Positions 5,434-51,973 of a DNA stretch of 51,973 bases are shown piece by piece. Both the position numbers and the translations under genes were made by a program. Source of the stretch: a virus. Lineage: Duplodnaviria > Caudoviricetes. The first letter of the stretch is position 1; every line of letters starts with the position of its first letter. A model generated the notes under the pieces. That model did no database searches and was not told where the DNA came from. It worked only from the letters and a program-made list of their open reading frames with translations. Location: the IMG/VR virus record IMGVR_UViG_3300024256_000012, positions 1 to 51,973 of that record; one strand, written 5' to 3'.

Positions 5434-6273
5434 TCATGAATTGACAGAAGCGACAATTTGTTCACTGGTTTGCTTCATCAACTTCAATGTTTCCATTAAT
5501 TCATCAGCAGTCTCATAAGACATCACGACAACTGGTGCTTCTTCTTCTTCTTCTGGAGGAGGATTATCAACCTTGAGTTGATCTTCAAGGCTTATAACTC
5601 TCCCACGTAATTCTTTCAATGTATCTATAACATAAGGGTCAGAACCTATGTCTTTGGCATAGTCTAGATCGTCATCATCAAAAGCATAAAACCTTTCAAT
5701 CAGCTGATCCATTTCGCCCATAGACTCTTCCCCAAATTGTTCCTTGATAGCTCCACGCAATTCATTAAACTCTCTTTTGGCTAGAGAGGAAACGAGAGCA
5801 GGGATAACAACCCCACTAAACTCCATCAGCTCCCACTTGGTAAAGGTTACACCAGTCTGTCCCTTGATTGGCTTCTCTTTTGATATCTCTAGAGCTTTAA
5901 AACCTATCGAGCCAGCGTTCAAGAATCCTTTGCGATACTTCCCAGCCAGCATTGTAGCGAAGACATCAGAACCATCTTCATCAAAAAGGATAGGAGCATC
6001 AAAAGCTTTCTTTGTAATCTTCGCACCCTCCAGAAGAGTTTTGCCAATAGGCAACTTGCCTCTGAATAGATCGTATCCATGCTGGAATAAAACTATGGGG
6101 TTGGTTGCGTAGTTATCTAGAAACACTCCATCAGGGATAACCACCTCACCATATCGGTCAACCTTCTTCTCAGTCAATCGAAACATAATGGGGTCACCGA
6201 CTTCGCCAGCCTTCTCTATAACTTGGGACATACCAATCTTAGGTATCAGATCACCAGCTTTGTATTCATGCAT
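5434..6273 (-). CDS. Prohead maturation protease (HK97 family)
   Basis: DRYGEVV, NPIVLFQH, PIGK, LNAGSIGF and ELMEFSGV motifs; lies between portal and capsid genes. Confidence 0.9.
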   Translation of the reverse strand: MHEYKAGDLIPKIGMSQVIEKAGEVGDPIMFRLTEKKVDRYGEVVIPDGVFLDNYATNPIVLFQHGYDLFRGKLPIGKTLLEGAKITKKAFDAPILFDEDGSDVFATMLAGKYRKGFLNAGSIGFKALEISKEKPIKGQTGVTFTKWELMEFSGVVIPALVSSLAKREFNELRGAIKEQFGEESMGEMDQLIERFYAFDDDDLDYAKDIGSDPYVIDTLKELRGRVISLEDQLKVDNPPPEEEEEAPVVVMSYETADELMETLKLMKQTSEQIVASVNS

Positions 6274-21946: not shown

Positions 21947-24900
21947 TTATTCAGCAACCTTTCCCTTCTTCAGTACCTTCAACTTGCTTATATCAATCTT
22001 GTTAAATCCAGGCACCTTCCTTCCCTGAAAGACTATCACCGACCCAACACCCGACTCTTCAAATATGAGCTTCTTGAACTTCCCAAATTTGTATCTATTA
22101 ATTCCAGCGAGTATCTGCCCTGTATCATCCTCCATCTGCATGATAAGAAACTCGTGTAAATCAGGTCGCTTGATCTTGGTCAAATCCTTCTGTGCGGTGA
22201 TACCAGCCTCAAATACATCTCGCAAATTCAGTCGGGTTATCTTCGCCAATATGATTACTTCTTCGGTGCGCTCTGTTACATCTTTGATTAGAGTCCACTT
22301 GCCCTCATATTTGTCGTACCAGTCTTGGAATCCTTCACCAATAGGATACAAGTCAGCCCACGGCAATAGGTCGGTGATAATGTCCATCCCCTTTGGGTTG
22401 CCAATCTCTTTGAACGTATCAATTATGGCTCCAGTAATCCCATCAAACAAGTCGGTCTGATTGATGTCACCCTTCGCTATTAATCCCTCAGGCAACTTAC
22501 CTAGCAAATGCAGGCTCTCTAACCCTCTTTTACCAAGAGCTTTCCTGAAGTCCTTGCTATTGCTCCATGGGCGTGTTGCGACAATTTTATCGGCTGCTTT
22601 CTCGCCAATTCCTTTCACGTTCTGAAAGCCACCATATATGATACCTTCTTTGAGGGTAAAATTCTGTTCGGACTTCTCCAAATCCAACGGCTCGAACTTC
22701 CCACCACGATCAACCCACTCTCGCAATAGCTTCTTGATAATGTCATCATCGTTCTCCTTGCGAATAGTGGAGATGTAAAACTCAGCTGGGTAGTGGGTTT
22801 TGAGATAGGCTGTCCAGTATGATAAAAGCCCATAGGAAACTGAGTGAGATTTATTGAATGCCCAAGAGCCGAATGTACAGACGTTCTCCCAAATGATTTG
22901 AGCTATCTCTTTGGTGACTCCATTCTTCCCAGCACCCTCAATGAACTTGCTTTCGTATGTCCGAAAATATTCAACACCCAAGCTCTTGCTCATAATTTTT
23001 CTCAGAGCAGTAGCATCCTCCCAGTTCATCCCACCTAGCTCTTTTACAATCGTGAGAACTTGCTCTTGATAGACTACAATTCCATAAGTCTCTCCAGCTA
23101 GAGTTTCGAGCATCGGGTGAATATATTGAACCTTCTTTTTTGTCGGTATGTCAAAGCCCATCTCGTGAGCTCTGTAATTGATATAACGAGTCGTGCCACC
23201 ACAGTGTAGTGACCCAGGTCGTGCCAGTGCGCTTATCTCTGCTATGTTAGTAAATTTGTCAGGCTGTACTTGTTTGTTGACCATCCTAACAGCGTCACCT
23301 TCAAATTGGAAAATTCCCCAGAGCTTATTTGTGCGAAAGGTCTCAAATGTTTTCGTATCTTCCAGAGGCAAATTATACAGCCAATCATAATCCTTCTCGA
23401 TCAGCAAAAGGATATTCTCTAGAATGGTAAGTTGCTTCAGTCCAAGCAGGTCAATCTTCAGCAAGCCGACTGCTTCAGAATCCTTCTTGTCCATACTGAT
23501 GATTCGTTCTCCTTTCGTGCCCCTAACAAGCCCACCTAGCTTGTCTATGGGCTGATCTGATACTACGAGCCCAGCGGCATGAATCCCGTGCTGTTTGATC
23601 TGTCCTTCGATCTTGGCTGCTTCCTTGAATAAAGGATATTGTTTCACAATCGCTTTGCTTCTCTCGAACTGGTCAAAGGTATCAGTCAAACAAAAGCTGG
23701 CACGAGCATCAGCTGAACTCCTTTCGACTATCAAATTGACAAGCTCTTGAGCTTCCCTGAATGGTAGGTCGTATGCCCTTCTTGTATCCCACAAAGCTAC
23801 CTTCGGTTTGAAGTATCCAATCGTGCCTAGCTGGCTTGTATACTCCTCCCCATATTTGTCAATCAAATACTCGATAACCATATGACGCTTTTCATCTGGG
23901 AAGTCTAGATCAATATCAGGTGGATCATTTCGAGTGATGTCAATAAATCTCTCGAAAATTAAGCCGTGAGGAATTGGATCAACTTCAGTTATCCTGAGGA
24001 CATAAGCGACTATGGAACCAGCTACACTTCCACGAGCTGGCCCAAGCAACATCCTCTTCTTAGCCCACACGCAAAGGTCTTGGATGACTAGGAAGTAGTC
24101 AATGTAATTTTTCTCGTTGATGAGCTTGACTTCCTTCGCAAGTCGTTTCTCGTACACTGGCCAGTCCTTGAGCTTTTTTAACCCTCTGAACTTTACTCCA
24201 GTGGTGATCTGATACAGGAAAAATTCCTCTTTGTTTTTCCATAGAGCATTCTTCTCCAGTGGGAAAGTTTTCTGCCCTGATATAACTCGCTTATCTGAAC
24301 ACTTGTCGTCAATCTCAAGGGTGTTCTCGAAAGGAGAGTGATCAGGGTAAACAAGGGCAGACCTTTCCTCAGCTTCAGCTCCATCGAAGAGATACAATTC
24401 AGGCATCAGTTTTAATCGGTTGGGGTCATCGAAGTTTGACTTGGTTCCTATGCATACAATCAAGTCCTCTGCTGTATGATCGTGGGGGCTGGGGAAGTGC
24501 GAGTCAGAAGTTGAGACTGGCTTGATATTATATTCATCTGCAAGCTCAAGTATCTGAGTCACCTCCCCAGCAAACTTTTCGATTGGGCTGACTTCTATAT
24601 AAAAGTCATCTTTGAATGCCTTCTTAAAACTCTTCAGATATTTGTCCCTGTATTGAGTTTTGCTAAGGTTATTAATTAAGACTCCAGCACCCATACATCC
24701 CGACAAAACGATCAACCCTTCGTTATGAGCCAGCAGAGTTTTGAAGTCGATTCTTGGCTTGTAATAGAATCCCTCAAAATTGCTAAAGGTTATCAGCTTG
24801 TGTAGGTTCTCTTGCCCAGTCTCATTCTTAGCCATAACTGTTATATGATAACGATGCCTGTCATGCCTATCCATAGCATCATCGACAATATAAAACTCAC

Positions 24901-25102
24901 AGCCGTAAATTATCTTGGTGCCGTTGTTTCGCTTCTTCGCTTCTCGCCAGAATGGAACATGAGCCCAGATATTGCCATGGTCAGTTATAGCTAGCGACTT
25001 GTGCCCAATCTCCTCTAGCCTATCAAGGTATTGAGCTGGCAATCCATACCCATCTAGGAAACTGTACCCAGTATGAGTATGGAGGTGTATGAAATCTAAC
25101 AT
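21947..25102 (-). CDS. dnaE: DNA polymerase III alpha subunit (family C)
   Basis: PHP motifs HLHTHTGYSFLDG, AITDHG and SDSHF; GPARGSVAGS, FERF, catalytic PDIDLD, HAAG, KIDLLGL, YQEQ and FNKSH; C-terminal OB-like MEDDTG. Confidence 0.97.
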   Translation of the reverse strand: MLDFIHLHTHTGYSFLDGYGLPAQYLDRLEEIGHKSLAITDHGNIWAHVPFWREAKKRNNGTKIIYGCEFYIVDDAMDRHDRHRYHITVMAKNETGQENLHKLITFSNFEGFYYKPRIDFKTLLAHNEGLIVLSGCMGAGVLINNLSKTQYRDKYLKSFKKAFKDDFYIEVSPIEKFAGEVTQILELADEYNIKPVSTSDSHFPSPHDHTAEDLIVCIGTKSNFDDPNRLKLMPELYLFDGAEAEERSALVYPDHSPFENTLEIDDKCSDKRVISGQKTFPLEKNALWKNKEEFFLYQITTGVKFRGLKKLKDWPVYEKRLAKEVKLINEKNYIDYFLVIQDLCVWAKKRMLLGPARGSVAGSIVAYVLRITEVDPIPHGLIFERFIDITRNDPPDIDLDFPDEKRHMVIEYLIDKYGEEYTSQLGTIGYFKPKVALWDTRRAYDLPFREAQELVNLIVERSSADARASFCLTDTFDQFERSKAIVKQYPLFKEAAKIEGQIKQHGIHAAGLVVSDQPIDKLGGLVRGTKGERIISMDKKDSEAVGLLKIDLLGLKQLTILENILLLIEKDYDWLYNLPLEDTKTFETFRTNKLWGIFQFEGDAVRMVNKQVQPDKFTNIAEISALARPGSLHCGGTTRYINYRAHEMGFDIPTKKKVQYIHPMLETLAGETYGIVVYQEQVLTIVKELGGMNWEDATALRKIMSKSLGVEYFRTYESKFIEGAGKNGVTKEIAQIIWENVCTFGSWAFNKSHSVSYGLLSYWTAYLKTHYPAEFYISTIRKENDDDIIKKLLREWVDRGGKFEPLDLEKSEQNFTLKEGIIYGGFQNVKGIGEKAADKIVATRPWSNSKDFRKALGKRGLESLHLLGKLPEGLIAKGDINQTDLFDGITGAIIDTFKEIGNPKGMDIITDLLPWADLYPIGEGFQDWYDKYEGKWTLIKDVTERTEEVIILAKITRLNLRDVFEAGITAQKDLTKIKRPDLHEFLIMQMEDDTGQILAGINRYKFGKFKKLIFEESGVGSVIVFQGRKVPGFNKIDISKLKVLKKGKVAE

Positions 25103-25647
25103 ATGGGGTTGTTCCTTTTTACCAGCTGAATTAAAACTGCGAGATTGCGCTCAGCGACTCCGATAATGATGCTGATGTTTACCTTTAAGCCCCCAGTGTC
25201 ATGCTTCTTGTAATAATCATTCTCAAGTAGATTCTTAAAAGTGGTTTCAGTAAATGTATGTTTGTGGTCTAAATCTTGGTGCGCCATATTCGATTTGTAG
25301 TATGGAACTGTTATGTTAATAACTCCATCAGATTTTAAAACTCTAGACATATCAGCGATAAGTGGAATCACATTTTGGATATGCTCTAGGAAATGGTGGC
25401 AATTGATAACGTCTACAGAGTTGGCCTTGAAAGGAATAGGATTTGATTCAGCATCCCATGATGGCCAATCTAACACCCTGTTATTTTCTAAGACCTTCAT
25501 CATGCCAGCTCCCAGATTTAAGATAACAGCGTCATCACCGACATCCCACTCAGGCTTATAATAAACAGAATTGATATCACGATCCATCCCGACTTTGAAA
25601 AACTCTCGAAGAGTTTTGGGGAAAGCCCCAAAATATTTCTTTGTCAT
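25096..25647 (-). CDS. Class I SAM-dependent methyltransferase-like protein (Methyltransf_11 type)
   Basis: Motif I VILNLGAG; IPFKANSVDVINCHHFLEHI; RVLKSDGVINITVP. No DPPY or PC DNA-methyltransferase motif. Confidence 0.8.
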   Translation of the reverse strand: MTKKYFGAFPKTLREFFKVGMDRDINSVYYKPEWDVGDDAVILNLGAGMMKVLENNRVLDWPSWDAESNPIPFKANSVDVINCHHFLEHIQNVIPLIADMSRVLKSDGVINITVPYYKSNMAHQDLDHKHTFTETTFKNLLENDYYKKHDTGGLKVNISIIIGVAERNLAVLIQLVKRNNPIC

Positions 25648-26462
25648 TTCTTATCTCCATCGGTGCTAAAGTGTTCAGACTTAAAGACTCGATCACCAGC
25701 CCACTCGAACTCGCATTGCTCTTCTGTCTCCTCAAATCCTTGGAACATACACTTGTGAGTTTTCTCGCAACTGATCTTTATGTACGGCTCCATCCAAGGC
25801 CATAGAATTAAAACTTCACTTGCCATTCGCTGCATTACTTCGACCATCTCCCACTGGAACATCGGGCAAGCTCGATAAGCGAAAGTGTCCAAGAAAACTT
25901 TGATTGGATATTCAGCCACAATATAAGTCTCTATGCCAACAGGAACAGCAAACCTTGCGTCTTGGTATGGGATGCCCAGTTCGCACAGCTTCTCGTATGT
26001 TTTACGAGCTTGAAACACAAGGTTATTAAAAATCTGATGAGCATCCCTATCGTTCCAGATTGTTTTAGGTTCTCGAACATTAAACTTGGCACCCATAAAA
26101 GTGTAGCGAGAAGATTGCTGGTGGAAGGCTGCTTTGCGAGTCCTTACCATCTGGTGAGTAAAAGCCCGACTGACTCCGCTTATCTCGAAGGTGAACACGC
26201 CAGCTTCCAATCCTGTCTGGAGTCCTCCTTTGAATAACTCTTCGCCAACCTCTGGTGGAATGTCTTCATTAATATCTCCACCCACAGTAGCTCCAACCAT
26301 CTTTGATAAAGCTCTTTTGAATCTCTTCTCATCTGGGTAGTCGATAAGCTTGACTTGGATACCATCGGTGCCAGCGTGAACTTCTCCTTTGTTTAAAGGA
26401 CTGATCGCATTCATGCCGTGCTCGTGAGAATTGAACGCAGTTTTCTTATTCTTGTTAAGCAT
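25644..26462 (-). CDS. thyX: Flavin-dependent thymidylate synthase homolog (ThyX family, divergent motif)
   Basis: FTFEISGVSRAFTHQMVRTR...QQSSRY, GIPYQDARFAVP and FQWEM. The canonical RHR reads RTR. Confidence 0.85.
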   Translation of the reverse strand: MLNKNKKTAFNSHEHGMNAISPLNKGEVHAGTDGIQVKLIDYPDEKRFKRALSKMVGATVGGDINEDIPPEVGEELFKGGLQTGLEAGVFTFEISGVSRAFTHQMVRTRKAAFHQQSSRYTFMGAKFNVREPKTIWNDRDAHQIFNNLVFQARKTYEKLCELGIPYQDARFAVPVGIETYIVAEYPIKVFLDTFAYRACPMFQWEMVEVMQRMASEVLILWPWMEPYIKISCEKTHKCMFQGFEETEEQCEFEWAGDRVFKSEHFSTDGDKK

Positions 26463-26805
26463 CTTGGCTTTCCTTTTCCATCTTCTCGATATTGAGAATT
26501 GTTAGTATTGAATAGTTTGCTAGGTCGATCAAGTTTTGTTTTACGTTCTCCAAATCCCTTTCTCTGGACTTGGGAGTTTTGCCTAGCATGAAATGATTAA
26601 GCTGGCGCACGTGACCTGATTTGAATAATCCTTTAACACGCAACCACTTCCTTTTGATATCATAATAGCTTCCAACCAGATCATCTTCCAAAAAGGAATT
26701 ACCATACTGGACATTCTTAACTGTAAAGACTCGAAGCATCTGCTGAGTTATCTCTTCAAATCTATTTTGTATTTCAATTTGGCTCATTCTATTCTCCATT
26801 GTCAT
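26455..26805 (-). CDS. DUF1599 / nucleotide-modification-associated domain 1 (all-alpha NTP-PPase-like)
   Basis: KNVQYGNSF...DIKRKWLR...LIDLANYSIL signature. Confidence 0.75.
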   Translation of the reverse strand: MTMENRMSQIEIQNRFEEITQQMLRVFTVKNVQYGNSFLEDDLVGSYYDIKRKWLRVKGLFKSGHVRQLNHFMLGKTPKSRERDLENVKQNLIDLANYSILTILNIEKMEKESQDA

Positions 26806-27719
26806 CTTATTTCATCCAGAGTTTTAATTCTGATTACATTCTTGCCCATATCACCTTGGTTGTAATCAGTGTCGATCAGATAACACTTTTTGCCAGCTTT
26901 GCTAATGTCATTAGCATAGTGTAGCATATCTTCAACCATAAACTCGATATTGGGGAACTGGCTTATGGCATCTTGATTTTTCTTCTCGCTGAAGATGATA
27001 GCGTCACGGCCATCCTCCCACAGATCATTTTCCCTCAACCAAAATAAAGTATCTGAAAAAATTCGGCTGTATTCTTTTACTGGCCTTGAGGTCAAATACA
27101 CTATCGAATATCCTGCGCTGTGCATGCTTTTGATAAAACTCCACGCACCTGAGCATAGCTCCATTGTACGCTTCTTGCCAGTCTCTCGATACTCGTGTTT
27201 GAGTTTCCTGATTGCTTTCCTTCCTAAGACTTTTTCATATGCTCTGAAGATGTCGTCTGTAAATGTTATCGGCTCCACCTGAGTCTCTTCGTGAATAAAC
27301 TTCATAAAGGAGTAAGGATAGTCAGCCAGCACCCCATCCAGATCACAAGCAATAATCTTTTCCCTATCTCGAAGCTTGAGAAGTTTTTCCTGAACCCAGC
27401 GTTGTTCCACCACAGCACTTTTATCAGCAAAAGCTTCCATAAACTCATCTGGTGCCCAGCCCCAGACCTGCCCTATGACGAGCCAGTATTTGAATATGTC
27501 AATCCACTCTTCTCGAATATTAGAAATGGTGAGCTGCTCCTTACTAGGCCGATGCGCTTTGTAGTTGATTTCTCGAAGCAACTCACCCAATTCTGCCATC
27601 AATTGTAAAACATATTCCTTAGTATATTTCTGTTTGGAATCTGTGTCATAAATCTCATCTGATATATTTGTCTGGAAGTCGGCTTGCCTATCCCAGATTT
27701 GCTGTAGTCTATCGCTCAT
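26802..27719 (-). CDS. Fusion of an all-alpha dimeric dUTPase/dCTPase-like NTP-PPase and a HAD 5'(3')-nucleotidase-like domain
   Basis: N-terminal ELGELLRE...YKAHR...EEWIDIFKY; C-terminal HAD motifs IACDLDGVLAD, YLTSRP, K and MVED. Confidence 0.85.
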   Translation of the reverse strand: MSDRLQQIWDRQADFQTNISDEIYDTDSKQKYTKEYVLQLMAELGELLREINYKAHRPSKEQLTISNIREEWIDIFKYWLVIGQVWGWAPDEFMEAFADKSAVVEQRWVQEKLLKLRDREKIIACDLDGVLADYPYSFMKFIHEETQVEPITFTDDIFRAYEKVLGRKAIRKLKHEYRETGKKRTMELCSGAWSFIKSMHSAGYSIVYLTSRPVKEYSRIFSDTLFWLRENDLWEDGRDAIIFSEKKNQDAISQFPNIEFMVEDMLHYANDISKAGKKCYLIDTDYNQGDMGKNVIRIKTLDEIR

Positions 27720-28671: not shown

Positions 28672-31602
28672 TTAGTCAAACATTTCTTGTTCAGTTTCGG
28701 GGTCAACTTGGAAAGCCGAATCATCCACGACAATCTGGCCATTTTTTCTCATATTGAGATACGTTATGAATGCCTCAGTTTTAACATAGAAGGAAGTACC
28801 AACTGTCTTCAAGGCATTATTGTTTCTTAAAACTCGCAGCACATTCTTAACAGCAGACCTTTCCCAGCCTGTTATGTCCACGAGCGAAGATAGATTCAAA
28901 CGATCATCCTCAAGGAGAAGAGGCACGAAGTCATTCTTGATAACCGCATCCACCGCAGATCGGTCTTTCAGTTTTGTTTTACTTAGCTCAACCTCAGACC
29001 ACTCTCCATATCTCATAGAGCTTTTGTTGTAAATCTTTTCCAGCCAGTTATAGAAGAAGTCAACGTGGCCAGTTTTAACAAGGAGGGTTTTGCCGTGGGT
29101 GTTGGTGCTGAAAAACATACCAGCTACAGCAGAAGCACCTCTCATTAGTTTTAATCTTTGATCAGAAGGTTCAACAATTGGTATGCCGTGATAATACTTA
29201 TCACCCATCTGCCTAGCATATTGTAAAACTTTCTTAATTGCTCCAGCCGTAAATTTCACCTCATCAGTTTTACGAGACCAGACCCACATAACAAGATCGT
29301 GACATAAGGCCTGAGTATATTTGAGCACCCTTTCCTCTTTTACTTTCACCCTGTTATAGACTTCTTTGTTCACCTCTTCGCTATGGGCTGTCAGGACAAA
29401 ATCGAATCGCCTGATGTCCTCTAGATTGCCGATCAAATCCCTGACCGCAATACAGCCATAAGGATATTGCATCATGTTCCTACTCGTGTGGCCAATCTTG
29501 CGTGGGTTACCAATCCAAACCTTTCGAGTTTGCGCCATAGTTTTCTCAGTCCTAATCTTAGTCAACTCAGCTATCCCTGATGACCTTACTCCAGAGAACA
29601 AAGCTATGTCTTCAACGCTCATTCCTGATATCTCGTCAATGATTAAAGCTCTGCGGTTATTAAGTGGGATTTTGCCCCAGTTGATATGCCATCGCTTCGC
29701 TGTCTGGCTTAGTCCTCCGATGAGCCCAGCAATGCTAGAGCTTTCACCAGTTACAAATTCTGCAACCCCATAGTGTTTAATCATCGCTTTGGCTAGCTCA
29801 GTTTTGCCACAGCCAGAATCTCCAATGATTAAACTCTCCATCCAACCACGCTCAACCTTCCCTTGAAACTTAACATTCAACGGACTGTGGAGAGTTATAT
29901 CAAATGTCATAGCGATGTCCATCCGATCATAGATGCCACTTATATGTTCGATGTCCTCATGCCTTTCGAGATAAGCCTTCATCATTTCTTCAGCACTACC
30001 ATCGCACTGGAAAATTTCCAAACGCTTTTCCATCTCCTCATTCATATCGAATTGGTCGATTGAATCAACAGTTTCTATGGCATCGAAAAAGAGCTGGGTG
30101 CTCTGCTGTGTTTTCGGGTTAGGAAGGGCAAGCCCTCTTAAAACATAGACTTGGTTGGCCTGTACTCCTAGCCCAGCGTGATACGCTACATTCTGAACAT
30201 ATTCATAATTCGCATCGGTGGTGAAGTCTATCTCTGGGATGAGTCTTAACTCTTCTATGTTTATATATGTTTTTGTATCTATCCTAAATCTGTCGCACCT
30301 ATTCGGGATGCCCAGCTGCTTCTTGATATTCCTAAACAAAGCATCATCTCGAATGTCGATAAGATTTAACAAACTGCCTCTGTCAACCTCCTCCTTCAAA
30401 AATATATCTTTATTGTTATCAGTCACCTGATAGAAGGGACAAAATGGGCATAGGTTCTCGCCACCCTTGGCATCGCATTTACAATTAACTTTATTTGGAA
30501 TTTCATAGGGTGGATAATCCTTGCCTGATACTAGAGCTTTGACTTCAATATTCATCAACGCATTCTTCGCATGGCTGGCGTCAGCAAGAGTGACCTTTTT
30601 ATATTCCTTGTTTCTCTCCTTCTTCCCATACTCCATTGTATCATAATATTCTTTGGCTGCTGTTAAAACTTCTCTGAAGTCCTCTATTGTTTTACCATAT
30701 GTTATTATAAAGTCTGTGAAGTCATCTCCTCCTTTCGGCTCTTCAATAAACTTCCCCAGCTCTGCTATGAATACAATCTCAGCTATCCCTACCAATTGCT
30801 TGGCGACTCGAATTGCTCCAGCTTCTCCAGCCTTATCTACATCATACAATATATAGACTTTTTTGTCCTTGAAATATTTATGAGGCCAGCCCTTGTTAAA
30901 ACTTCCAGCCCCACTCGTAACAGTCACGGCCTTCAGCCCCATCTGGTCGGCCAACATCGCATCCATCTCTCCTTCGACAATCAATATTTTCTTCGACTCT
31001 AGATTGTGAAGAGGAAACAAGCGCATGCGCCCATATTGGTATTCTGAATCATCGGTGTAATTGATTAATTTGAACTTGGGATTCTTCATCAGGAAAGCAT
31101 ATTGGCGTACATTCCTGCACTTGCCTTCGCTGTCGAATATTGGTATGGTGATTCTGTTCCTAAAATATCCAAGCTTGTGCTTCTTGATAGTCGCTAGAGT
31201 GATGCCACGCATCTCCTCCAGCTTGGATATTATCATCTTGTTATCGAGCAAAGCCTTGTGCCAACTTTCCCATATAGAATTGTCAACTGTTCCCTCAAGA
31301 GAATAGTCATCAGCATTAAGCTTTATATCAAGATGTTTACAGAGCCATTGAATGCGTTCTCGTTTCGTTTCCAGCCCCAGCTTTTTCTCAAGGAATGTAT
31401 AGACGTTTCCAGACCCGCATCCCGCATAACAATTGTATTGCCCTGTTTGAGAATTAAAACCAAAACTGGGGTCAGTATCTTCGTGTAAAGGACAATGTCC
31501 AGAAAACTGTCCATCTCCCAACGGCTTAATCTTTTCTACAAAATCTTCATAGAATCTCAGGTAGTCAATCTTCAATTCTATCTGTTCAATAATACTAGGC
31601 AT
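28672..31602 (-). CDS. Primase-helicase: CHC2 zinc finger, TOPRIM (DnaG-type) and MCM-like AAA+ helicase
   Basis: CPLHEDTDPSF..CYAGC; IVEGEMD and YDVDKAG; Cys cluster CKC...CPFC; GDSGCGKT, SSIAGLIGG, IIDE, IGNP and RRFD. Confidence 0.9.
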   Translation of the reverse strand: MPSIIEQIELKIDYLRFYEDFVEKIKPLGDGQFSGHCPLHEDTDPSFGFNSQTGQYNCYAGCGSGNVYTFLEKKLGLETKRERIQWLCKHLDIKLNADDYSLEGTVDNSIWESWHKALLDNKMIISKLEEMRGITLATIKKHKLGYFRNRITIPIFDSEGKCRNVRQYAFLMKNPKFKLINYTDDSEYQYGRMRLFPLHNLESKKILIVEGEMDAMLADQMGLKAVTVTSGAGSFNKGWPHKYFKDKKVYILYDVDKAGEAGAIRVAKQLVGIAEIVFIAELGKFIEEPKGGDDFTDFIITYGKTIEDFREVLTAAKEYYDTMEYGKKERNKEYKKVTLADASHAKNALMNIEVKALVSGKDYPPYEIPNKVNCKCDAKGGENLCPFCPFYQVTDNNKDIFLKEEVDRGSLLNLIDIRDDALFRNIKKQLGIPNRCDRFRIDTKTYINIEELRLIPEIDFTTDANYEYVQNVAYHAGLGVQANQVYVLRGLALPNPKTQQSTQLFFDAIETVDSIDQFDMNEEMEKRLEIFQCDGSAEEMMKAYLERHEDIEHISGIYDRMDIAMTFDITLHSPLNVKFQGKVERGWMESLIIGDSGCGKTELAKAMIKHYGVAEFVTGESSSIAGLIGGLSQTAKRWHINWGKIPLNNRRALIIDEISGMSVEDIALFSGVRSSGIAELTKIRTEKTMAQTRKVWIGNPRKIGHTSRNMMQYPYGCIAVRDLIGNLEDIRRFDFVLTAHSEEVNKEVYNRVKVKEERVLKYTQALCHDLVMWVWSRKTDEVKFTAGAIKKVLQYARQMGDKYYHGIPIVEPSDQRLKLMRGASAVAGMFFSTNTHGKTLLVKTGHVDFFYNWLEKIYNKSSMRYGEWSEVELSKTKLKDRSAVDAVIKNDFVPLLLEDDRLNLSSLVDITGWERSAVKNVLRVLRNNNALKTVGTSFYVKTEAFITYLNMRKNGQIVVDDSAFQVDPETEQEMFD

Positions 31603-31646
31603 ATAACAACTCTATTTCAATTTGAATAATAATTACAAATAAAACT

Positions 31647-31776
31647 CTTAAATAAAAAATTTCGCTATGCCACAACTGCACTTTCTCTCGTGAGCTCCAA
31701 ACTCGAAAACTACGAATGCACGAAGCTTTCTCTATACTACCCTGAGCGAAATTTTTTATTTCGCTGCATAAGTCTA
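31647..31776. repeat. Non-coding element, copy B, with a perfect 17-bp inverted repeat (candidate origin)
   Basis: AAATAAAAAATTTCGCT (31650-31666) pairs with AGCGAAATTTTTTATTT (31745-31761). It shares three blocks with 11379-11509 and sits in an AT-rich gap upstream of the primase-helicase. Confidence 0.8.
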
Positions 31777-31973
31777 TTAAAAACAAGGATTGGACAGTTT
31801 TAGAATCGATGATAAAACTCTTTTTTAAAATCTTACTTTTAAAAAGTTTTAAGATCGGCACGGGATTCCTACTAAATTTCATGTGTAGAAATTTTAGCAG
31901 ATTTTTATTTTTAAGTTTATCACTAATTTCCAGCATCAGCCTGATCACCCTATATTAACTATAATTTAATAAC

Positions 31974-33484: not shown

Positions 33485-33773
33485 GATATTTGCTTTGGTG
33501 ATAATCCCATATCAGCAAATTAACGCAACCAAGCTTCTTCATAATTATCGCTGTACAATAACTCGCTATGACGCTATTGCCCGCAATCAAAAGATAGTCG
33601 GTTGGCTTCATATTCTCCACGGCCATCTCGATGTCTCGCTTCAAGCCATCATCCCTGAAGATATTTGTTTTGCCTTCGGTGATATAAACAATCTCTCCAT
33701 CACCCTCCAAAAACCTAACAGAATCAGATAACTCAACTCTGTTAAAGTTTGTTACAAAGATGCTCCTATTCAT
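33465..33773 (-). CDS. Small alpha/beta hypothetical protein
   Basis: IFVTN...IVYITEG...DYLLIAGN...VNLLIWD...Y pattern. Confidence 0.7.
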   Translation of the reverse strand: MNRSIFVTNFNRVELSDSVRFLEGDGEIVYITEGKTNIFRDDGLKRDIEMAVENMKPTDYLLIAGNSVIASYCTAIIMKKLGCVNLLIWDYHQSKYREGNVK

Positions 33774-33996
33774 TTGCCTTCACCTCATATAACTCTATGG
33801 CATCTTTAATAACTGTTAAAACTTTCGGGTCAGAAAATATAATGCGCAGAACTTGCTTCAATAATCTGCCTTTGGTTTTATCAATAACATTCATAAAGAG
33901 CTTTGAGCCATTCTTTTCATAAGTGGTAACAAGCTCCACCTTGTACCATTTATTTTGGGCTGATATAACTCTAGCTGGCCTCACCTTACTTGACAT
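33766..33996 (-). CDS. Hypothetical protein
   Basis: 76 aa; GAGGAG RBS; overlaps neighbours. Confidence 0.6.
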   Translation of the reverse strand: MSSKVRPARVISAQNKWYKVELVTTYEKNGSKLFMNVIDKTKGRLLKQVLRIIFSDPKVLTVIKDAIELYEVKANE

Positions 33997-35773
33997 TGCT
34001 GTACTCCTCTTTAAAACTCGTCATCAGAGCGTTGATGCCTTTCTTGCCTTCGATAACACCAGCGATAATTTCATCAATAGTTTTCTTTGCTACTAAGATA
34101 TATTCATTCATGGGATTCTTTTGCCCTGATCTGTTAAACCTTTCGACACTCTGAGCATAATCCTCAAAACTGTAATTCATACTGTATCTGTAACTATAAC
34201 TAGCCACAGAGAGATTTAAACCCATCCCAGCAGACTTGGGGTGAGCTATGAACGCTTGAGCATCTCCTTCGATGAATTCACTCAGCGCAATCTCTCTGTT
34301 CGGCTTAGACACTCCACCATAAAACTGCACACACTTGACTCCAGCCTTCTCCAGAGCTTCGGTTATTATGCGAATATCTTCATGGTATACTGCCCACACT
34401 ATAAACTTTGCATTTGGCGGCAAATCCTTTATAGACTCGATGAGGAGTTTTAATTTTGGATTTGGTGTAAAATAAGTTTTGTTTGTACCTTCTGTATTCT
34501 GAATAAAGCCAGATGTGATTTGAGATAGCCGAAGGAGTTTTGTCAATACAATCGAAGCGTCATAAGCTTCTTCATCAATAAGGGTTACCATGTCGGCAGC
34601 CATCTCGTTGTAAGCTCGTTTCTGTTCCTTTGTTAGTTCTAACTCTAGCCACTGGGAAGCAAATGGTGGAAGGTCTTGGGTGTCCTTCTTCTTCCAGCTA
34701 ACAGAATAGACCGACTTGATTTGCTCTAGCCTATTTGCCGTTGCTGGCTTTGGGTTCCACTCGTATTCATTCCAATGGGACTTCTGAAAATATAACTCTC
34801 GAAAGGCATAGAAGGATTCACCCAGCATTCTAGGGTCAAGGAACTTCCACTGAGGGAAAAGCTCCAGCCAAGTGTTAGGAGTCGGGGTGCCAGTAAGGAT
34901 AGATTTGAACTCAGCTACTGTACTGAGTTTTAACATAGCTTTGGTTTGCTTGCTAGTTGGGTTTTTAATCCTTGAGGATTCATCAGCGATTATAAAGTCT
35001 GGATTCAGTTTTAATAACTGAGGCAAGAGTCGCCATGTTTTCTCATAGTTGATTATATAAATTCCATCCATGTCGGCCTGTAAAACTTTCCTAGCATAAT
35101 CGACTGACCGACCTAAAACATTTATGGTAAGTGGGTTGCCCTCTCCTAAGAATAGCCGAATGTCATTTGCCCAGACACGTTCCATAATTGATAATGGGCA
35201 AACAATTAAAACTCTTTTAACATCAGCATTCCAAATCCTATCCCATATCAATCCTATTTGTACTGCAGTTTTACCAGACCCAGGTTCACTAAAGTCTGCA
35301 GAGAGATTTGTTTGGCTCCAAAATGTAAAACTCTGGAGCTGGTGAGTCCAGAAGGGAAGTGCTAACAGATCACGATAATCCTCATCAGGATTGAGCAGAG
35401 CTTCATCCCGAAGTTTTAACAAATCGACATAGCCCTGTCGAAGCTCATCAAGTCCTTCTTTGGTCCCAGCCTCAATCTCCACCTCAGGGAAGACAGCCAC
35501 CACTTCATTAAACACGAGTTTTAATAATGGGAATGTCCAGTGTTTAGTTTTCTTGCTAAAATAGCTGCCTGTAATCGAGACAGCCCTTGTTCGATCTTCA
35601 TAAGGACACCATAGGCAGAGCTTGCCACCCTCTGCCCATAGTGTTGGTTTTGTTAACTTGTTATAATGTCTTAGCAACGATCTTGGCCTCATCAGAGATG
35701 TACTCATCGACACTCTTGCCAAACTTGATAAGCCAGTTAATTGTATCAGGCCTAGTATGAGCAAAGGCTTCAA
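33986..35773 (-). CDS. SNF2-family (SF2) helicase/ATPase; start uncertain
   Basis: HQ, EPGSGKT, LIVCPLS, INYE, IIADES, LTGTP, KLLRLSQITSG, SAGMGLNL and QSVERFNRSGQ. Confidence 0.93.
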   Translation of the reverse strand: MKPLLILGLIQLTGLSSLARVSMSTSLMRPRSLLRHYNKLTKPTLWAEGGKLCLWCPYEDRTRAVSITGSYFSKKTKHWTFPLLKLVFNEVVAVFPEVEIEAGTKEGLDELRQGYVDLLKLRDEALLNPDEDYRDLLALPFWTHQLQSFTFWSQTNLSADFSEPGSGKTAVQIGLIWDRIWNADVKRVLIVCPLSIMERVWANDIRLFLGEGNPLTINVLGRSVDYARKVLQADMDGIYIINYEKTWRLLPQLLKLNPDFIIADESSRIKNPTSKQTKAMLKLSTVAEFKSILTGTPTPNTWLELFPQWKFLDPRMLGESFYAFRELYFQKSHWNEYEWNPKPATANRLEQIKSVYSVSWKKKDTQDLPPFASQWLELELTKEQKRAYNEMAADMVTLIDEEAYDASIVLTKLLRLSQITSGFIQNTEGTNKTYFTPNPKLKLLIESIKDLPPNAKFIVWAVYHEDIRIITEALEKAGVKCVQFYGGVSKPNREIALSEFIEGDAQAFIAHPKSAGMGLNLSVASYSYRYSMNYSFEDYAQSVERFNRSGQKNPMNEYILVAKKTIDEIIAGVIEGKKGINALMTSFKEEYSNVK

Positions 35774-36065
35774 TCAATCTAATCATGTGGTCATCGAAGT
35801 AATCTTTGAGGTCAATATTCTTCGTGCCTTCTTCGGTCTCTGTTTCCTCTTCCTCTTCATCAGTAGGAAACCATACACCCCATCCAAGGGAAATTGCTTC
35901 AGCATCTACTTTATCAAAGTCGCTCCAGTCGCTTGAAGCGAAGTCTTGTAGAAACTTTTCAGCGTAGTCAATAAGGTAGTCCAAACCCTCCTTGCTAATC
36001 TTGACATCAGCATCGGTGAATAAAGCTTTTAATTGGCGTTGATTGATAATGCGATTTTGTGGCAT
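35661..36065 (-). CDS. Hypothetical protein with candidate N-terminal histone fold, acidic linker and helical C-terminal domain
   Basis: IINQRQLKALFTDADVKISKEGLDYLIDYAEKFLQDFA...KVDAEAISL follows the alpha1-L1-alpha2-L2-alpha3 pattern of prokaryotic histones. AAGGA RBS. The CDS itself is well supported; the fold call is tentative. Confidence 0.5.
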   Translation of the reverse strand: MPQNRIINQRQLKALFTDADVKISKEGLDYLIDYAEKFLQDFASSDWSDFDKVDAEAISLGWGVWFPTDEEEEETETEEGTKNIDLKDYFDDHMIRLIEAFAHTRPDTINWLIKFGKSVDEYISDEAKIVAKTL

Positions 36066-36094
36066 GTTCCTTTTTCCTTTTTCGTTTGTGATGA

Positions 36095-36123
36095 TAAAAA
36101 AGCCCCAGCAATATGCTGAAGCT
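36095..36123 (-). terminator. Terminator-like hairpin upstream of the replication block
   Basis: AGCTTCAGCA-TAT-TGCTGGGGCT followed by TTTTT. Confidence 0.6.
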
Positions 36124-36167
36124 TAAAACTCAATCATCGTATTTGATAAACTTGTAACCCAACCCAT
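36123..36167 (-). CDS. Candidate 14-aa leader peptide
   Basis: AAAGGAG-N7-ATG; MGWVTSLSNTMIEF*; the stop abuts the terminator hairpin. Confidence 0.35.
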   Translation of the reverse strand: MGWVTSLSNTMIEF

Positions 36168-36258: not shown

Positions 36259-38991
36259 TTAATCAACTTCGATAGCATCAATGGTAATTTCAGATCGTTT
36301 AAAATCATAACTCAAATTAATGACTGCCCACTTCTTCGAGTTCATAACTGACTCTGTATACATGCCTTCGATTATAGGATGACGAATATTGATGACATCC
36401 CACTTCTGTAAATGTATAGCGTTGAAGAAAGTTTTGAACTTTGCACGCCAGTGTTTCTTATGAAGTCTATCGAGTAAATGATCAAGGTGAATAGTAGCAG
36501 TTGTTAAATCTCTCGTGTATGGATTCTTGTATGTCTTTGCTATAACTTCAGAGTGGATTGTAACATCTGAATCATTAACATCTTTCTGGAGTCCGAAAGC
36601 TCCATTGTCAACATACTCGACAGTAACATCTGTGACCAGAGTTTCCTTCTGCCCGACCATGCTAAATGAGTTTTGTATGATTGGATTCTCTAGATAACTC
36701 AAATCCCACAATGGATAATCTGAGGTGTCAGTTCCAGCAGCAGTATCAGTATCTGTCTGAAAGCCTATAAAGCGACCAACTTGGCGGCTTGTAGTTGACC
36801 AATCTAAAGAGGTGCCAGCAACAACAGTAACAGTAAACTTTCCTGTGGTGGAAGAGTAGGTGCAAGTTGACCCACCGATTATAACTGATAGGTTGGTTTG
36901 GATCATACTCGCTAGGGCTGATGCTGTATATGTTCCAGCTGTCAAAGTTGTTGATATGGAGCCTGGGCCTGGATGTGTAAAATATAGTTTATCATTCACG
37001 CTAGCTTCAATAACAAAAACTGTATTGGGATTGTAGTCAAATATATCTCTATTGCTGGGCTTGGTATCTCCAGAAGCAGAGAAGCCAACAGGCCCACCAA
37101 ACACCAGCATCCTAGTCAGCCCAGTAGCATCAATATCTGTTAGAGATTTAACAGTTGTTAAGAGTTTTGTCATTGGAGTGAACCATGGCTCTGGACTCCC
37201 ATGAATAGCTAGCGACAATATGGACGTTGATAAATCATTTGAGGCAATATTAAAACTATCCCTCAAGAGGTCAGTATCATCCGAAGGACCAACGCCAGCT
37301 TCGTTGCCCATCCCTAGCTCATCCCTGAATAAACTCTCGACAACGCCAGCAGCATTCTCGATAAGGGTGCCAGAGCCGTTGGAATCAATATGGGCTTCAG
37401 AGTATCCATCCACGACATCTCTATCATCTATCCATGTGTCATATTCTCTTCCTTTGATAGATGAATATAATGGCATATATTCATAGCTAGAAAATACACC
37501 TTTCTTCCATACTTCATAAATGGTCGCAACAGTTTCAGTAGCACCTGCTGATATGTCTCGATAGTGCGCAATAGTTATGCTTTGTTGCATGGCAGCATCA
37601 CCGCCAGCACCGACATTAGCAATGAAGATAGTTTTAATTCCAGCATTAGCATGAGCATTAAGTTCATTGCCATCTACAAGCAGGTGAAGTTGCCCAGCAG
37701 CTAGGCCAGCACCCCTTGTTAAACTAAACTTAATATACAACCCAACAGTGCCGATAGTTCTGTCATTTGTGTAGGTCGCATCGAAGTCTAAATCAACTCT
37801 AGCTTGAACAAGGGCTGACCAACCTGCACCGATAGTACTCACAGCAGGAGTAGCAGCGTCAGAGTCAACAGCATAAGTATCGTTTGTCCAAGTCGCAGCA
37901 CCGACATCTGCGTTGTTAGAAGTAGTCCCATCACCAAGTAAAATATCTCTGTAAGATCGGTTACTGTTAGCTTGATAACTAAACGTAGCACCATCAGTAT
38001 TATTATTTGTCATAGCTACTGGCGTGGATGTATTCTCGACAAATCTTCCAAGCGTTGAATCCCACGCCCAAACTAAGTCTGTAGTATTCAGAGTTGTTAA
38101 AACTTCGTGACCTGCCATCATCCACTTTTCCTGATTGGCTGAGTTCACCCCAAGCAGAATCATAGGCACCATATTATTATCTTTGTCACAAGTCATTGCG
38201 TCAGTCGTGCCAGTCGCAGCTCCATATAAGTTTCGGTGGTCGCCATAAATGATCGGCTTAATTTGTCCCAGAGCTTCGTCAGGAAGAGTAGCACCATCAG
38301 CCCCATCACTTCCCTCAAGGAGAGTACCAATTTGTTTATCGAGAAGTTGATTGGAGTCGGTTACATTAAACTGCATTGACTTATAGTTTAATGAAGGAGT
38401 GTCTTTGACAAGTCCTGAATAGAGTTGTAAACGCTCTGACAAGTTAATTGTAAGACCATCGTCAAAGTATTCAAATATATTAACTTCCATAAGAGCCATG
38501 TCTGGGTAAGTCGCTAGAACATCTGAAAATAATTCATTGTTCATAACTCCAAAACCTAAGTCTTGAGTTGGTGAGAATCCACCCAGCTCTTTGGCATATT
38601 GTTTTACTTTCGGTGGAAGAGATAAAATGCCCTGATAAGGTCGGTCAATCTCCCAGACTTGTCCAGACCCATTAACAAAAGTCGCACTGGCGCAATTCAC
38701 CCTTGTAGGTGAAGCGATAGCAGTTATGGGATATACACCAGCATTTGCTCCGCCAGTTATAGTTAAAACATCACCGATTAAAACTTGAGTTGTATCCATA
38801 GTAGCAGACTCGAAGCGTGTTGGCTTCGCTACATCGGTGTCTCCATCAGCTTCAGCATCAATGCGAACATCGAAGGAACTATTGGCTGAGAAGTTTTGTC
38901 CAATGCCTGCTATCTCAATTCCCATCCGTGGAAAATATCCTTTGAGATTGCTTTGTTTTAAAATGTGGGCATCTATTGAGGGCAAAGACAT
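36259..38991 (-). CDS. Tail tip/baseplate hub-like protein
   Basis: 910 aa after TMP and a Dit-like gene. GQIKPIIYGD, IENAAGVVESLFRDELG and HLQKWDVINIRHP resemble hub/central tail proteins. Confidence 0.75.
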   Translation of the reverse strand: MSLPSIDAHILKQSNLKGYFPRMGIEIAGIGQNFSANSSFDVRIDAEADGDTDVAKPTRFESATMDTTQVLIGDVLTITGGANAGVYPITAIASPTRVNCASATFVNGSGQVWEIDRPYQGILSLPPKVKQYAKELGGFSPTQDLGFGVMNNELFSDVLATYPDMALMEVNIFEYFDDGLTINLSERLQLYSGLVKDTPSLNYKSMQFNVTDSNQLLDKQIGTLLEGSDGADGATLPDEALGQIKPIIYGDHRNLYGAATGTTDAMTCDKDNNMVPMILLGVNSANQEKWMMAGHEVLTTLNTTDLVWAWDSTLGRFVENTSTPVAMTNNNTDGATFSYQANSNRSYRDILLGDGTTSNNADVGAATWTNDTYAVDSDAATPAVSTIGAGWSALVQARVDLDFDATYTNDRTIGTVGLYIKFSLTRGAGLAAGQLHLLVDGNELNAHANAGIKTIFIANVGAGGDAAMQQSITIAHYRDISAGATETVATIYEVWKKGVFSSYEYMPLYSSIKGREYDTWIDDRDVVDGYSEAHIDSNGSGTLIENAAGVVESLFRDELGMGNEAGVGPSDDTDLLRDSFNIASNDLSTSILSLAIHGSPEPWFTPMTKLLTTVKSLTDIDATGLTRMLVFGGPVGFSASGDTKPSNRDIFDYNPNTVFVIEASVNDKLYFTHPGPGSISTTLTAGTYTASALASMIQTNLSVIIGGSTCTYSSTTGKFTVTVVAGTSLDWSTTSRQVGRFIGFQTDTDTAAGTDTSDYPLWDLSYLENPIIQNSFSMVGQKETLVTDVTVEYVDNGAFGLQKDVNDSDVTIHSEVIAKTYKNPYTRDLTTATIHLDHLLDRLHKKHWRAKFKTFFNAIHLQKWDVINIRHPIIEGMYTESVMNSKKWAVINLSYDFKRSEITIDAIEVD

Positions 38992-50729: not shown

Positions 50730-51812
50730 TTAGCTGTTAGAGCTTCTGGAAAGCTCAACCCACTCTGTGCCGTTGTGTAAAAACTCGATTCTGTCATCAA
50801 CGTGGTCCATAACGAAATCAGCACCACCAGCACAGATGAATGCCCCTGCTCCAGTTCCATCCTTAACAGTGATTTGATTTGAAGCCCCTGAAGCATTTGG
50901 GGATAAGATCAATCTCGCTCCATTCGTTCCACCACCACAAGTAACAAGGTCATCAGCTCCAGCACCTGGCCCACCAACAGGGATAACTTTCAACCAACTT
51001 TTTTCAGTAGTCACGTGACCAGAAGCATTCAATGTCGATACACCTGATTCATGTATTAAAAGTCTTTCCACAGTAAAGGTACACCCAAAGATTCCAGCCT
51101 GACCATTTCCATCGTCAATCTTGAGGAAAGAACCATTGCGAAGTTCATCCCAATCTCCAAGGTGGTAAATTTCATTACCCCAGTCAATATCCAGACCAAT
51201 CGGTGAAGTGCCTTCCCTTGTTTGAACGAGCTCATTATTATTATCAATGATCAAGTTCTTTTCGTTGAAGGCTCCATCCCAGTCGCCCACTTCGGTAAAT
51301 TGATTGGCATTATCAATCCTGAATCCTTGTTCAGTTGTTTGAATAGTCCTATTGAAGTCATCCAAGATAAATTGCGTTCCATTAACAACATAATCAATGT
51401 CTCCAATTACCATGCCATAGTTCGGAGTAGCTTCCATTAGCAATCCACCGCCTTGGCCAAACAGGGTCAAGCCATTGGTGTCGGATAAGTACATCTCAAC
51501 AGTACCAAACTTAAATGAATGAGTCCCTTGGGCAACATCTACTGTGAACAAAGCCCCATTCCCATACCAATCATCGATATCACCAAGCTTAATAGTTTCC
51601 CCTTGTGTTAAAACTTCAAGGAAGCGACCATCAGTGTTGCCAATCCAAGTTGCATTTGTATTATCTTCAACTCTTAGCAGGTTCCCGTTGTATAATGCTT
51701 CAGGGTCACCTAAGCTGAATTCCAGACCACCAAAATCTAATTTCAGACCAATAGTATCTGAACCAAACCCACCGTCATAAAATGCGAACATGTTAGCTGC
51801 AACATCTAGTTC
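50730..51812 (-). CDS. 3' part of the junction-spanning fibre/adhesin-like protein
   Basis: The frame stays open upstream of the listed Met 51791 (...ELDVAANMFAF). Repeated GDxD...NG...hDD units; C-terminus FLHNGTEWVELSRS is typical of fibre ends. Confidence 0.85.
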   Translation of the reverse strand, partial: ELDVAANMFAFYDGGFGSDTIGLKLDFGGLEFSLGDPEALYNGNLLRVEDNTNATWIGNTDGRFLEVLTQGETIKLGDIDDWYGNGALFTVDVAQGTHSFKFGTVEMYLSDTNGLTLFGQGGGLLMEATPNYGMVIGDIDYVVNGTQFILDDFNRTIQTTEQGFRIDNANQFTEVGDWDGAFNEKNLIIDNNNELVQTREGTSPIGLDIDWGNEIYHLGDWDELRNGSFLKIDDGNGQAGIFGCTFTVERLLIHESGVSTLNASGHVTTEKSWLKVIPVGGPGAGADDLVTCGGGTNGARLILSPNASGASNQITVKDGTGAGAFICAGGADFVMDHVDDRIEFLHNGTEWVELSRSSNS

Positions 51813-51973
51813 AAAGGAAAGACCTGAATAAACATCCCCACCTCTGACTGCACTTGAATTGAGGTTGATAGATTGGTCATCGTCATCCAGAAGAAAGTAT
51901 GTACCTGAAAAGTTAGTATCAACATCACCGAGTTTTATAAGAGGTGTATAATCTCCAGGGATTTCTCCAATAA
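51813..51973. repeat. Terminal direct repeat, right copy
   Basis: 161-nt match to 1-161 with one mismatch. Confidence 0.95.

Follow-up and report, generated by a model that had tools for sequence, protein, structure and literature searches.

A predicted acidic histone-fold protein encoded beside an SNF2 ATPase in a tailed phage genome

What might a small, strongly acidic protein with the predicted fold of a histone do in a virus of bacteria? The question is raised by ORF134, an open reading frame (ORF) of 134 amino acids (aa) in IMG/VR record IMGVR_UViG_3300024256_000012, a complete Caudoviricetes virus genome of 51,973 bp that was analysed over its whole length (the window) and in which nearly all long ORFs lie on the minus strand. 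ORF134 occupies 35661..36065 on that strand, from an ATG to a stop codon at 35661-35663, and encodes an acidic two-domain protein in a tailed-phage setting, with tail and tape-measure genes adjoining. A first-pass annotation of the same DNA had proposed that it may be a divergent histone or a DNA/histone mimic. The reading developed here is that of an acidic histone-fold dimer that does not wrap DNA and binds a basic protein surface, the neighbouring SNF2 ATPase being the first candidate for a partner. Taken as a whole this reading is tentative and falls somewhat short of an even chance, and its parts differ in strength.

ORF134 is a real gene. It is more than a chance ORF, because 10 homologues of similar length (each 125-135 aa, with 23-74% BLASTP identity) turned up when two very large protein collections were searched iteratively, and because the alignment of the resulting 11 family members restricts insertions and deletions to an acidic linker. 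An AAAGGA Shine-Dalgarno-like box, read off the sequence, lies at 36075..36080 (minus), 9 nucleotides (nt) 5' of the ATG. The phage is present in many seawater metagenome runs. Six runs recorded as metatranscriptomes contain part of the ORF134 region, and in the four RNA-library runs examined ORF134 is covered by contigs of 100% identity, one of them corresponding to 35664-36163; these contigs give no start, strand or level, allow for DNA carry-over and do not by themselves prove transcription.

The N-terminal domain of ORF134 very probably adopts a histone fold, as judged from profile comparison and structural modelling. The domain spans residues 4-67 (35865..36056, minus), with alpha1 at 9-18, loop 1 (L1) at 19-24, alpha2 at 25-44, loop 2 (L2) at 45-54, alpha3 at 55-65 and an invariant P67. 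The residues on which the first-pass annotation had built this layout are all present: QRQLKALF at 9-16, VKIS at 21-24, KEGLDYLIDYAEKFLQDFA at 25-43, KVDAEAI at 52-58 and the acidic run DEEEEETETEE at 69-79. Profile-profile comparison by hhalign used a reference of 27 natural archaeal histones with pairwise identity below 80% (alignment A6). The 11-member family aligns with this reference over 64 columns, residues 4-67, at a probability of 77.2% and an E value of 2e-5, and thus the profile similarity to histones was found whose absence the earlier annotation had named beforehand as refuting. From alpha1 through the whole of alpha3 the alignment keeps its register, save for a gap of one residue in L1 and another of five residues in alpha2; the latter bears out the suspicion that alpha2 is short. 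Both groups share the pattern AG..[IVL][ST].[DE]A at L1 and the start of alpha2.

The N-domain alone scores 34.0 against the archaeal histones (probability 89.5%, P 2e-6), compared with a mean of 9.0, a standard deviation of 2.0 and a maximum of 16.6 for 200 column shuffles. Among the further controls, the C-terminal domain scores 10.1-10.7, and the reversed domain reaches 7.6 against a narrower histone profile. That earlier, narrower profile gave a probability of only 31% (P 5e-4), its signal coming mostly from about 26-39 columns; circularly shifted controls score about 23 as local segments survive the shift, and they make no valid null. Because the narrow profile and the single sequence both give weak scores, the histone signal needs both profiles. 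A language-model look-up adds a lead, and only a lead by the tool's own calibration: among the eight matches displayed of 30, Pfam families of the histone-fold type (CBFD_NFYB_HMF, TFIID-18kDa and CENP-S, at scores of 0.84-0.89) are present in every one except an unnamed viral cluster, although in three clusters only 12-29% of the members have them. For the C-domain the top look-up score is at most 0.80, which gives no information.

The AlphaFold2 monomer model, built from 11 sequences, places helices at 9-18, 25-44, 55-65, 92-102 and 106-133; the predicted N-domain shows the helix-loop-long helix pattern of a histone fold, and the model as a whole matches the helix-loop-long helix-loop-helix and the helical C-terminal part that had been claimed from the letters. 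Histone-fold chains recur among the structural matches, none of which is significant, at Z 3.4-4.1, with a root-mean-square deviation (rmsd) of 2.1-2.9 Å over 43-52 residues. Within 50 VIA-align rows, at least six are titled as histones or histone-fold TAFs (1bh9_A, 6m4g_C, 1h3o_D, 6f3t_E, 9f2c_A and 9qt0_A, at Z 3.6-3.8), and about seven further rows, from nucleosome, TFIID, SAGA and kinetochore entries, are inferred to be histone-fold chains.

ORF134 probably also forms a handshake homodimer, as predicted by a two-chain model of residues 1-68. This model reaches an interface score (ipSAE) of 0.78 compared with 0.00 for the best of three controls, so that the handshake dimer sought by the first-pass annotation appeared in the predicted structure; the ipSAE mark is reached by 20 of 30 proteins solved as one-chain pairs and by 1 of 23 solved as single chains. 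Contact agreement between runs is at least 93%, and partner confidence, given as the predicted local distance difference test (pLDDT), is at least 85. Four contact sets have the lowest error, and they are precisely those of a histone handshake: 35-35, where the two alpha2 helices cross; L1 (21-24) with L2 (53-54) of the partner; alpha1 (12, 15 and 16) with the C-terminal half of the partner's alpha2 (39-43); and the N-terminal half of alpha2 (27-34) with the partner's alpha3 (55-59). Residues 55, 57-59, 62 and 66 are part of the predicted interface.

The chemistry of the domain departs from that of histones. ORF134 has a net charge of -16 and an isoelectric point (pI) of 4.32, and all 11 family members lie between -15 and -18, with pI values of 4.2-4.5. 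Taken by itself, the fold domain has a charge of -3 to -9 across the family, compared with a net 0 to +10 in the archaeal histones listed for comparison. The archaeal-invariant R53 (the L2 arginine) and D60 (the alpha3 aspartate) correspond to F50 and a non-acidic position, and the family thus has no L2 Arg-alpha3 Asp pair (RxTxxxD); the L1 arginine of histones is replaced by lysine or threonine, never arginine. L2 of ORF134 reads SDFDKVD, and the family alignment upholds the early remark that the basic RKT loop has given way to acidic or neutral residues. Because of this strong acidity and the lost DNA-contact motifs, a non-wrapping role is favoured, and on balance ORF134 is rather not a DNA-wrapping histone.

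Behind the fold lies an acidic linker, residues 68-88 (35802..35864, minus), with 11 D/E among 21 residues. Its length and sequence vary across the family, every member having 10-14 D/E per 20-30 residues, and residues 71-84 have pLDDT values below 50. The remaining third or so of the protein, residues 89-134 (35664..35801, minus), is modelled at low confidence as a C-terminal helical hairpin with helices 92-102 and 106-133. This hairpin holds 9 of the 16 invariant or near-invariant positions of the family (R105, D107, K114, L119, I123, E126, K128, A131 and L134), is neutral to basic (pI 5.0-10.2 across the family) and shows no histone similarity by hhalign at its scores of 10.1-10.7. It is a candidate oligomerisation or partner-binding domain.

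A layout of this kind has been described before. The "phage histones" of Schwab 2024 (Nat Commun, PMC11390915), as presented in the available part of that article, come from Caudovirales contigs and combine an N-terminal, alpha3-truncated histone fold with a C-terminal helical tetramerisation domain; they lack RxTxxxD, conserve K10 and K49, and have DNA bridging as their proposed role, with A0A2E7QIQ9 as the example. On that description the layout of ORF134 matches these published predicted proteins: both have the N-terminal fold, a loop, a C-terminal helical domain and a tailed-phage origin; alpha2 falls short of that of nucleosomal histones by 4-5 residues in the one and by 5 in the ORF134 family; RxTxxxD is absent from both; and lysines near positions 10 and 49-52 are conserved in both. 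They differ in alpha3, which has 3-4 residues in the phage histones as described there, compared with a predicted 11 (55-65) in ORF134, aligned along the whole archaeal alpha3 to residue 67. Acidity and SNF2 adjacency are traits of the ORF134 family of which the accessible text of Schwab 2024 makes no mention, the comparison being one of descriptions, not of sequences; a count of the words "helicase" and "SNF2" in that paper gives 0 for each.

The available portion of Liu 2025 (hLife, PMC13681535) characterises a second group, the Caudoviricetes VTTHFPs ("tail-to-tail"), in which the N-terminal histone fold is followed by a flexible loop and then by a long C-terminal helix; a tetramer is predicted for them. 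Unlike ORF134, these have a shorter loop and conserved K5, K9, R29 and K48 that are proposed for DNA binding. The same portion reports that SNF2 is the most frequent chromatin-related domain in histone-bearing viral genomes and that the histone-SNF2 association in Caudoviricetes is not significant. Adjacency or overlap with an SNF2 gene, as found in the ORF134 family, is not described there for VTTHFPs. Literature searches found no experimental study of phage histones.

Among cellular histones, the archaeal nucleosomal proteins (HMf/HTk, PF00808) resemble ORF134 in the five-element fold, by profile, and in the predicted handshake dimer, and HTkC is a weak structural match (9f2c_A, Z 3.6, rmsd 2.9 Å, 52 residues). 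They differ in that ORF134 has no PF00808 match, a shorter alpha2, an extra linker and C-domain, neither the L1 Arg nor the L2 Arg-alpha3 Asp pair, and a pI of 4.3. Bacterial histones such as HBb (Bd0055) and HLp are small, basic DNA-binding proteins of about 56-65 residues. ORF134 shares with them a short singlet fold outside archaea and eukaryotes, and HLp is again a structural match (9qt0_A, Z 3.6, rmsd 2.8 Å, 51 residues); unlike them, ORF134 is acidic, two-domained and phage-encoded.

The gene that follows ORF134 encodes an SNF2-family ATPase (33986..35692, minus; 568 aa from ATG 35692). Other possible starts are ATG 35707 and TTG 35773, the longest ORF being 33986..35773; the true start is likely ATG 35692 or 35707, because the long ORF is homologous to other SNF2 proteins only from residue 42 onwards. 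The assignment comes from Pfam (SNF2-rel_dom at 1.8e-26, plus Helicase_C) and from phrog_62 (5.8e-105); among solved structures the best relative is the Sulfolobus SNF2/Rad54 helicase 1z63 (5.7e-17). Anti-phage defence models match in the ATPase core only, ZorD (1.6e-29) and DpdE (2.9e-26) being the best. The possibility that the N-terminus of the SNF2 protein holds a HARP-like domain was dropped, as Pfam gave no support at E≤10.

The 3' end of ORF134 and the 5' end of the SNF2 gene overlap at 35661..35692 (minus), by 32 nt, or by 47 nt if the start is 35707, with SNF2 in the +1 frame. Gene order together with this overlap confirms the earlier observation that ORF134 heads the replication module and runs into SNF2. 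Context could be retrieved for three lineages: the window, L003 (L002 being the same phage) and L004. In all three the histone-fold gene stands immediately before SNF2 with a start/stop overlap, at a histone-fold identity of 25-30%. L003 has the order tape measure, 129-aa gene, 914-aa tail gene, histone-fold gene, SNF2, four small genes, 114-aa gene and primase; its SNF2 ATG at 6359 lies 20 nt within the histone-fold gene, with a GAGGAGG box 9 nt before it. In L004 the histone-fold stop and the SNF2 start have 1 nt in common, and the same module lies downstream. A programmed frameshift yielding a fusion with SNF2 was considered and rejected: SNF2 lies in the +1 frame relative to the histone-fold gene in the window and in the -1 frame in L003 and L004, the overlap lengths are 32-47, 20 and 1 nt, respectively, and 1.84 billion representatives contain no longer forms. 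The differing frames and the lack of longer forms indicate that the two are separate genes, probably translationally coupled.

Further family contexts were sought without result in IMG/VR, with the queries A1, A3, A4, P0004, P0005 and P0008, and in metagenome and genome contigs with the 11-member alignment A3. Two apparent loci, L005 and L006, were discarded as spurious low-complexity matches on high-GC contigs.

The results that weigh against the reading concern its fold as well as its link to SNF2. With regard to the fold, they lend some substance to the alternative that ORF134 is a generic helix-loop-helix protein whose amphipathic helices, together with model bias, produce the histone signals. 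No histone family is detected by HMMER: in Pfam the only match is Cpf1_PI-like at E 0.068, with no histone-fold model at E≤1; the four PHROGs matches (E 0.077-0.33) are not significant; NCBIfam and PADLOC give no match; PF00808 finds nothing in the window genome at E≤10; and the single CENP-X match among seven family members, at E 0.061, is under the cut-off. A PDB sequence search with ORF134, as single sequence and as profile, likewise returned nothing below E 0.3, and short relatives consisting of the fold domain alone (37-121 aa) were not found at E≤10. When the 72 window ORFs are scored singly against the histone profile, ORF134 comes first by a slim lead, 19.6 compared with 18.9 for a spurious ORF. 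The monomer model has a mean pLDDT of 58.5 (57-74 in the N-domain) from a shallow alignment of 11 sequences, an earlier run with four near-identical sequences having given 41. A Foldseek search with this model came back empty at E≤0.001 against PDB and BFVD, and VIA-align gave no match at Z≥5. GatC (Z 3.5, rmsd 2.6-2.8 Å, 44-45 residues) scores like the histone rows, and assorted unrelated helical proteins score the same or above. The dimer model may itself draw on memory of solved histone dimers; because these are abundant, the predicted handshake is best treated as a likeness that is perhaps in part model memory. What counts against a generic helical protein is the profile-profile alignment, in register over five elements and far above all 200 shuffles, together with the noise-level scores of the reversed and C-domain controls and a handshake matched in four separate element pairs of the contact map. 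We consider this alternative quite improbable.

Two other alternatives accept the fold and assign it a different task. One would make ORF134 a DNA-bridging phage histone of the kind proposed for A0A2E7QIQ9, in which basic residues of alpha1 and an L2 lysine would bind DNA, the C-terminal helices would make a bridging tetramer and the linker would tune affinity. The architecture is that of the published phage histones and VTTHFPs, as far as these are described, the C-domain is neutral to basic, and basic residues remain at two places where histones touch DNA, K/R at 10 (9 of 11 members) and K52 (10 of 11), which recall the K10 and K49 of the phage histones in the available description; on account of these residues the protein may still bind DNA. 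Speaking against bridging are the net charge of every family member, -15 to -18 per chain with an acidic fold domain besides, the three or four aspartates that flank L2, and the loss of the L1 arginine and of the L2 Arg-alpha3 Asp pair. Bridging is, in our judgement, unlikely.

The other alternative is a stand-alone acidic decoy, either a DNA mimic or a binder of host proteins (for example one directed against restriction or nucleoid proteins), for which the nearness of SNF2 would be inherited gene order. Phage DNA mimics such as Ocr and ArdA are small, dimeric and highly acidic, and are encoded early in a transcription unit. ORF134 is likewise small, very acidic and predicted to be dimeric, and is the first gene after an inter-operon gap. 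By sequence comparison it is also a fast-evolving accessory gene: between the window and L003 the histone-fold protein is 30% identical, compared with 57% for SNF2 and 64% for the primase (25%, 50% and 58% for L004), and tblastn of ORF134 against 50,697 phage records gave no match, compared with 68 of the same records for the gp34-like module gene. The SNF2 link is weakened in its own right, since the three phages are syntenic over the whole module and the link is one of gene order only. Start/stop overlaps are frequent in the window genome, and no fused histone-fold-SNF2 protein was found in a search of 1.84 billion representatives with no length limit, whose four matches were all 125-135 aa. 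Homologues of the SNF2 protein in Pseudanabaena phage Pam3 and Acinetobacter phage DMU1 have the same N-terminal region and unrelated upstream genes; Pam3 gp30 and DMU1 gp26, which stand upstream of these helicases, were inspected as counterparts of ORF134 and look unrelated by eye. The homolog synteny that the first-pass annotation wished to see is thus present as SNF2 adjacency in all three lineages, and loses its edge through the synteny of the entire module and through SNF2 genes that have no histone-fold neighbour. The decoy reading itself is opposed by the SNF2 start/stop overlap, which is kept in 3/3 lineages although lengths and frames differ, and by the failure to find similarity to a known anti-defence or mimic family (PADLOC covering defence systems only), including any sequence or fold similarity to Ocr or ArdA. 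We regard a decoy as rather unlikely, if a shade less so than bridging.

The preferred reading, that of a non-wrapping acidic histone-fold dimer, can be set out as a tentative mechanism. Two copies of the protein would pair in the classical handshake through the histone fold of residues 4-67. Behind this fold, residues 68-88 would be a disordered poly-acidic linker and residues 89-134 a conserved helical hairpin, whose probable task is to join dimers or to dock a partner. The protein would keep the fold without the usual DNA-contact chemistry and would most likely not wrap DNA; it may instead bind the basic surface of a DNA-binding protein, like acidic histone-fold subunits and DNA mimics. The first candidate for that surface is the SNF2 translocase, whose gene ORF134 overlaps; both proteins would thus be made together at the head of the replication module. 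Because the three genomes are syntenic throughout, we infer this partnership from gene order and do not regard it as shown; it is possible, and somewhat doubtful even beside the tentative whole.

Eukaryotes offer a precedent. MHF1-MHF2 with FANCM and CHRAC-14/16 with ISWI are cases of a histone-fold dimer or tetramer that serves an SNF2 or SF2 motor rather than packaging, and the CHRAC subunits have acidic tails; these eukaryotic pairs bind DNA via basic surfaces. The MHF chains 4drb_B and 4dra_B are among the weak structural rows for ORF134. A stronger version of the preferred reading, in which an acidic histone fold with a charge-inverted DNA face would be a dedicated regulatory or targeting subunit of the phage SNF2 translocase and hence a viral counterpart of MHF-FANCM and CHRAC-ISWI, is unlikely at present.

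On the 5' side of ORF134 lie, in order, a tape-measure-like gene (748 aa), a gene of 126 aa and a tail gene of 910 aa, which ends at 36259, and ORF134 is the first gene past this tail gene, across a 193-nt gap. Within the gap are a mini-ORF of 14 codons, a terminator-like hairpin with a U tract, and the AAAGGA box. The hairpin, 11 pairs followed by UUUUUU at 36100..36124 (minus), lies 35 nt before the ORF134 ATG and has a folding energy of -14.3 kcal/mol (z -2.65); it would terminate the tail operon or else be a structure within the 5' leader, and one RNA-library contig crosses it. A hairpin with a U-rich tail occurs at the same relative place in L003 (about 5942-5963) and L004 (about 74-95). 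Across the three lineages the stems measure 9-11 bp, stand about 35-40 nt before the histone-fold start and differ in sequence; against shuffles their z values are -2.65 in the window, -1.46 in L003 and -0.58 in L004, so that only the window's stands out. The mini-ORF MGWVTSLSNTMIEF (14 codons, 36123-36167, minus) has a strong AAGGAG box 7 nt upstream, and its stop codon overlaps the foot of the hairpin. Its counterpart in L003 has only two codons behind a similar AAAGGAG box, and the mini-ORF could be a leader peptide or chance.

On the 3' side follow, in order, the SNF2 ATPase, a 76-aa gene, a Pam3 gp32-like gene, a Gp157-like gene, a Pam3 gp34-like gene, the primase, nucleotide-metabolism genes including ThyX, and a DnaE-type polymerase. 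The small module genes 33766-33996 (minus, 76 aa) and 31595-31948 (minus, 117 aa) belong to no family and diverge faster than the histone-fold gene, with 30% identity or no BLASTP match in the other lineages. The primase, a 976-aa protein at 28672-31602 (minus), is of the DnaG type, its zinc ribbon and Toprim being joined to an MCM-like P-loop domain. At 25096-27719 (minus), a series of overlapping genes encodes an S-adenosylmethionine (SAM) methyltransferase of 183 aa, a ThyX-like protein of 272 aa, a DUF1599 "nucleotide modification associated" protein of 116 aa and a dUTPase_2 + NT5C fusion of 305 aa, and may be a nucleotide or DNA base modification pathway. The polymerase gene, 21947-25102 (minus), specifies a full DnaE-type Pol III alpha with PHP, NTPase, finger and HHH domains in this 52-kb phage. 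ORFs on the same strand run off both ends of the record (1-1644 and 50730-51971, both minus), which suggests a circularly permuted assembly cut within a gene, although the frames as listed do not join exactly.

Phage histone-fold proteins have so far been known from structure predictions only and are assumed to bind or bridge DNA. If the reading of ORF134 is upheld, a bacterial virus would supply a natural example of a histone fold put to a use other than DNA wrapping. The relation of ORF134 to SNF2 would also bear on why SNF2 is the commonest chromatin-type gene in histone-bearing viral genomes, and, should the stronger version prove true, the pairing of a histone fold with a remodeller-type motor would have arisen, or been reinvented, outside eukaryotic chromatin.

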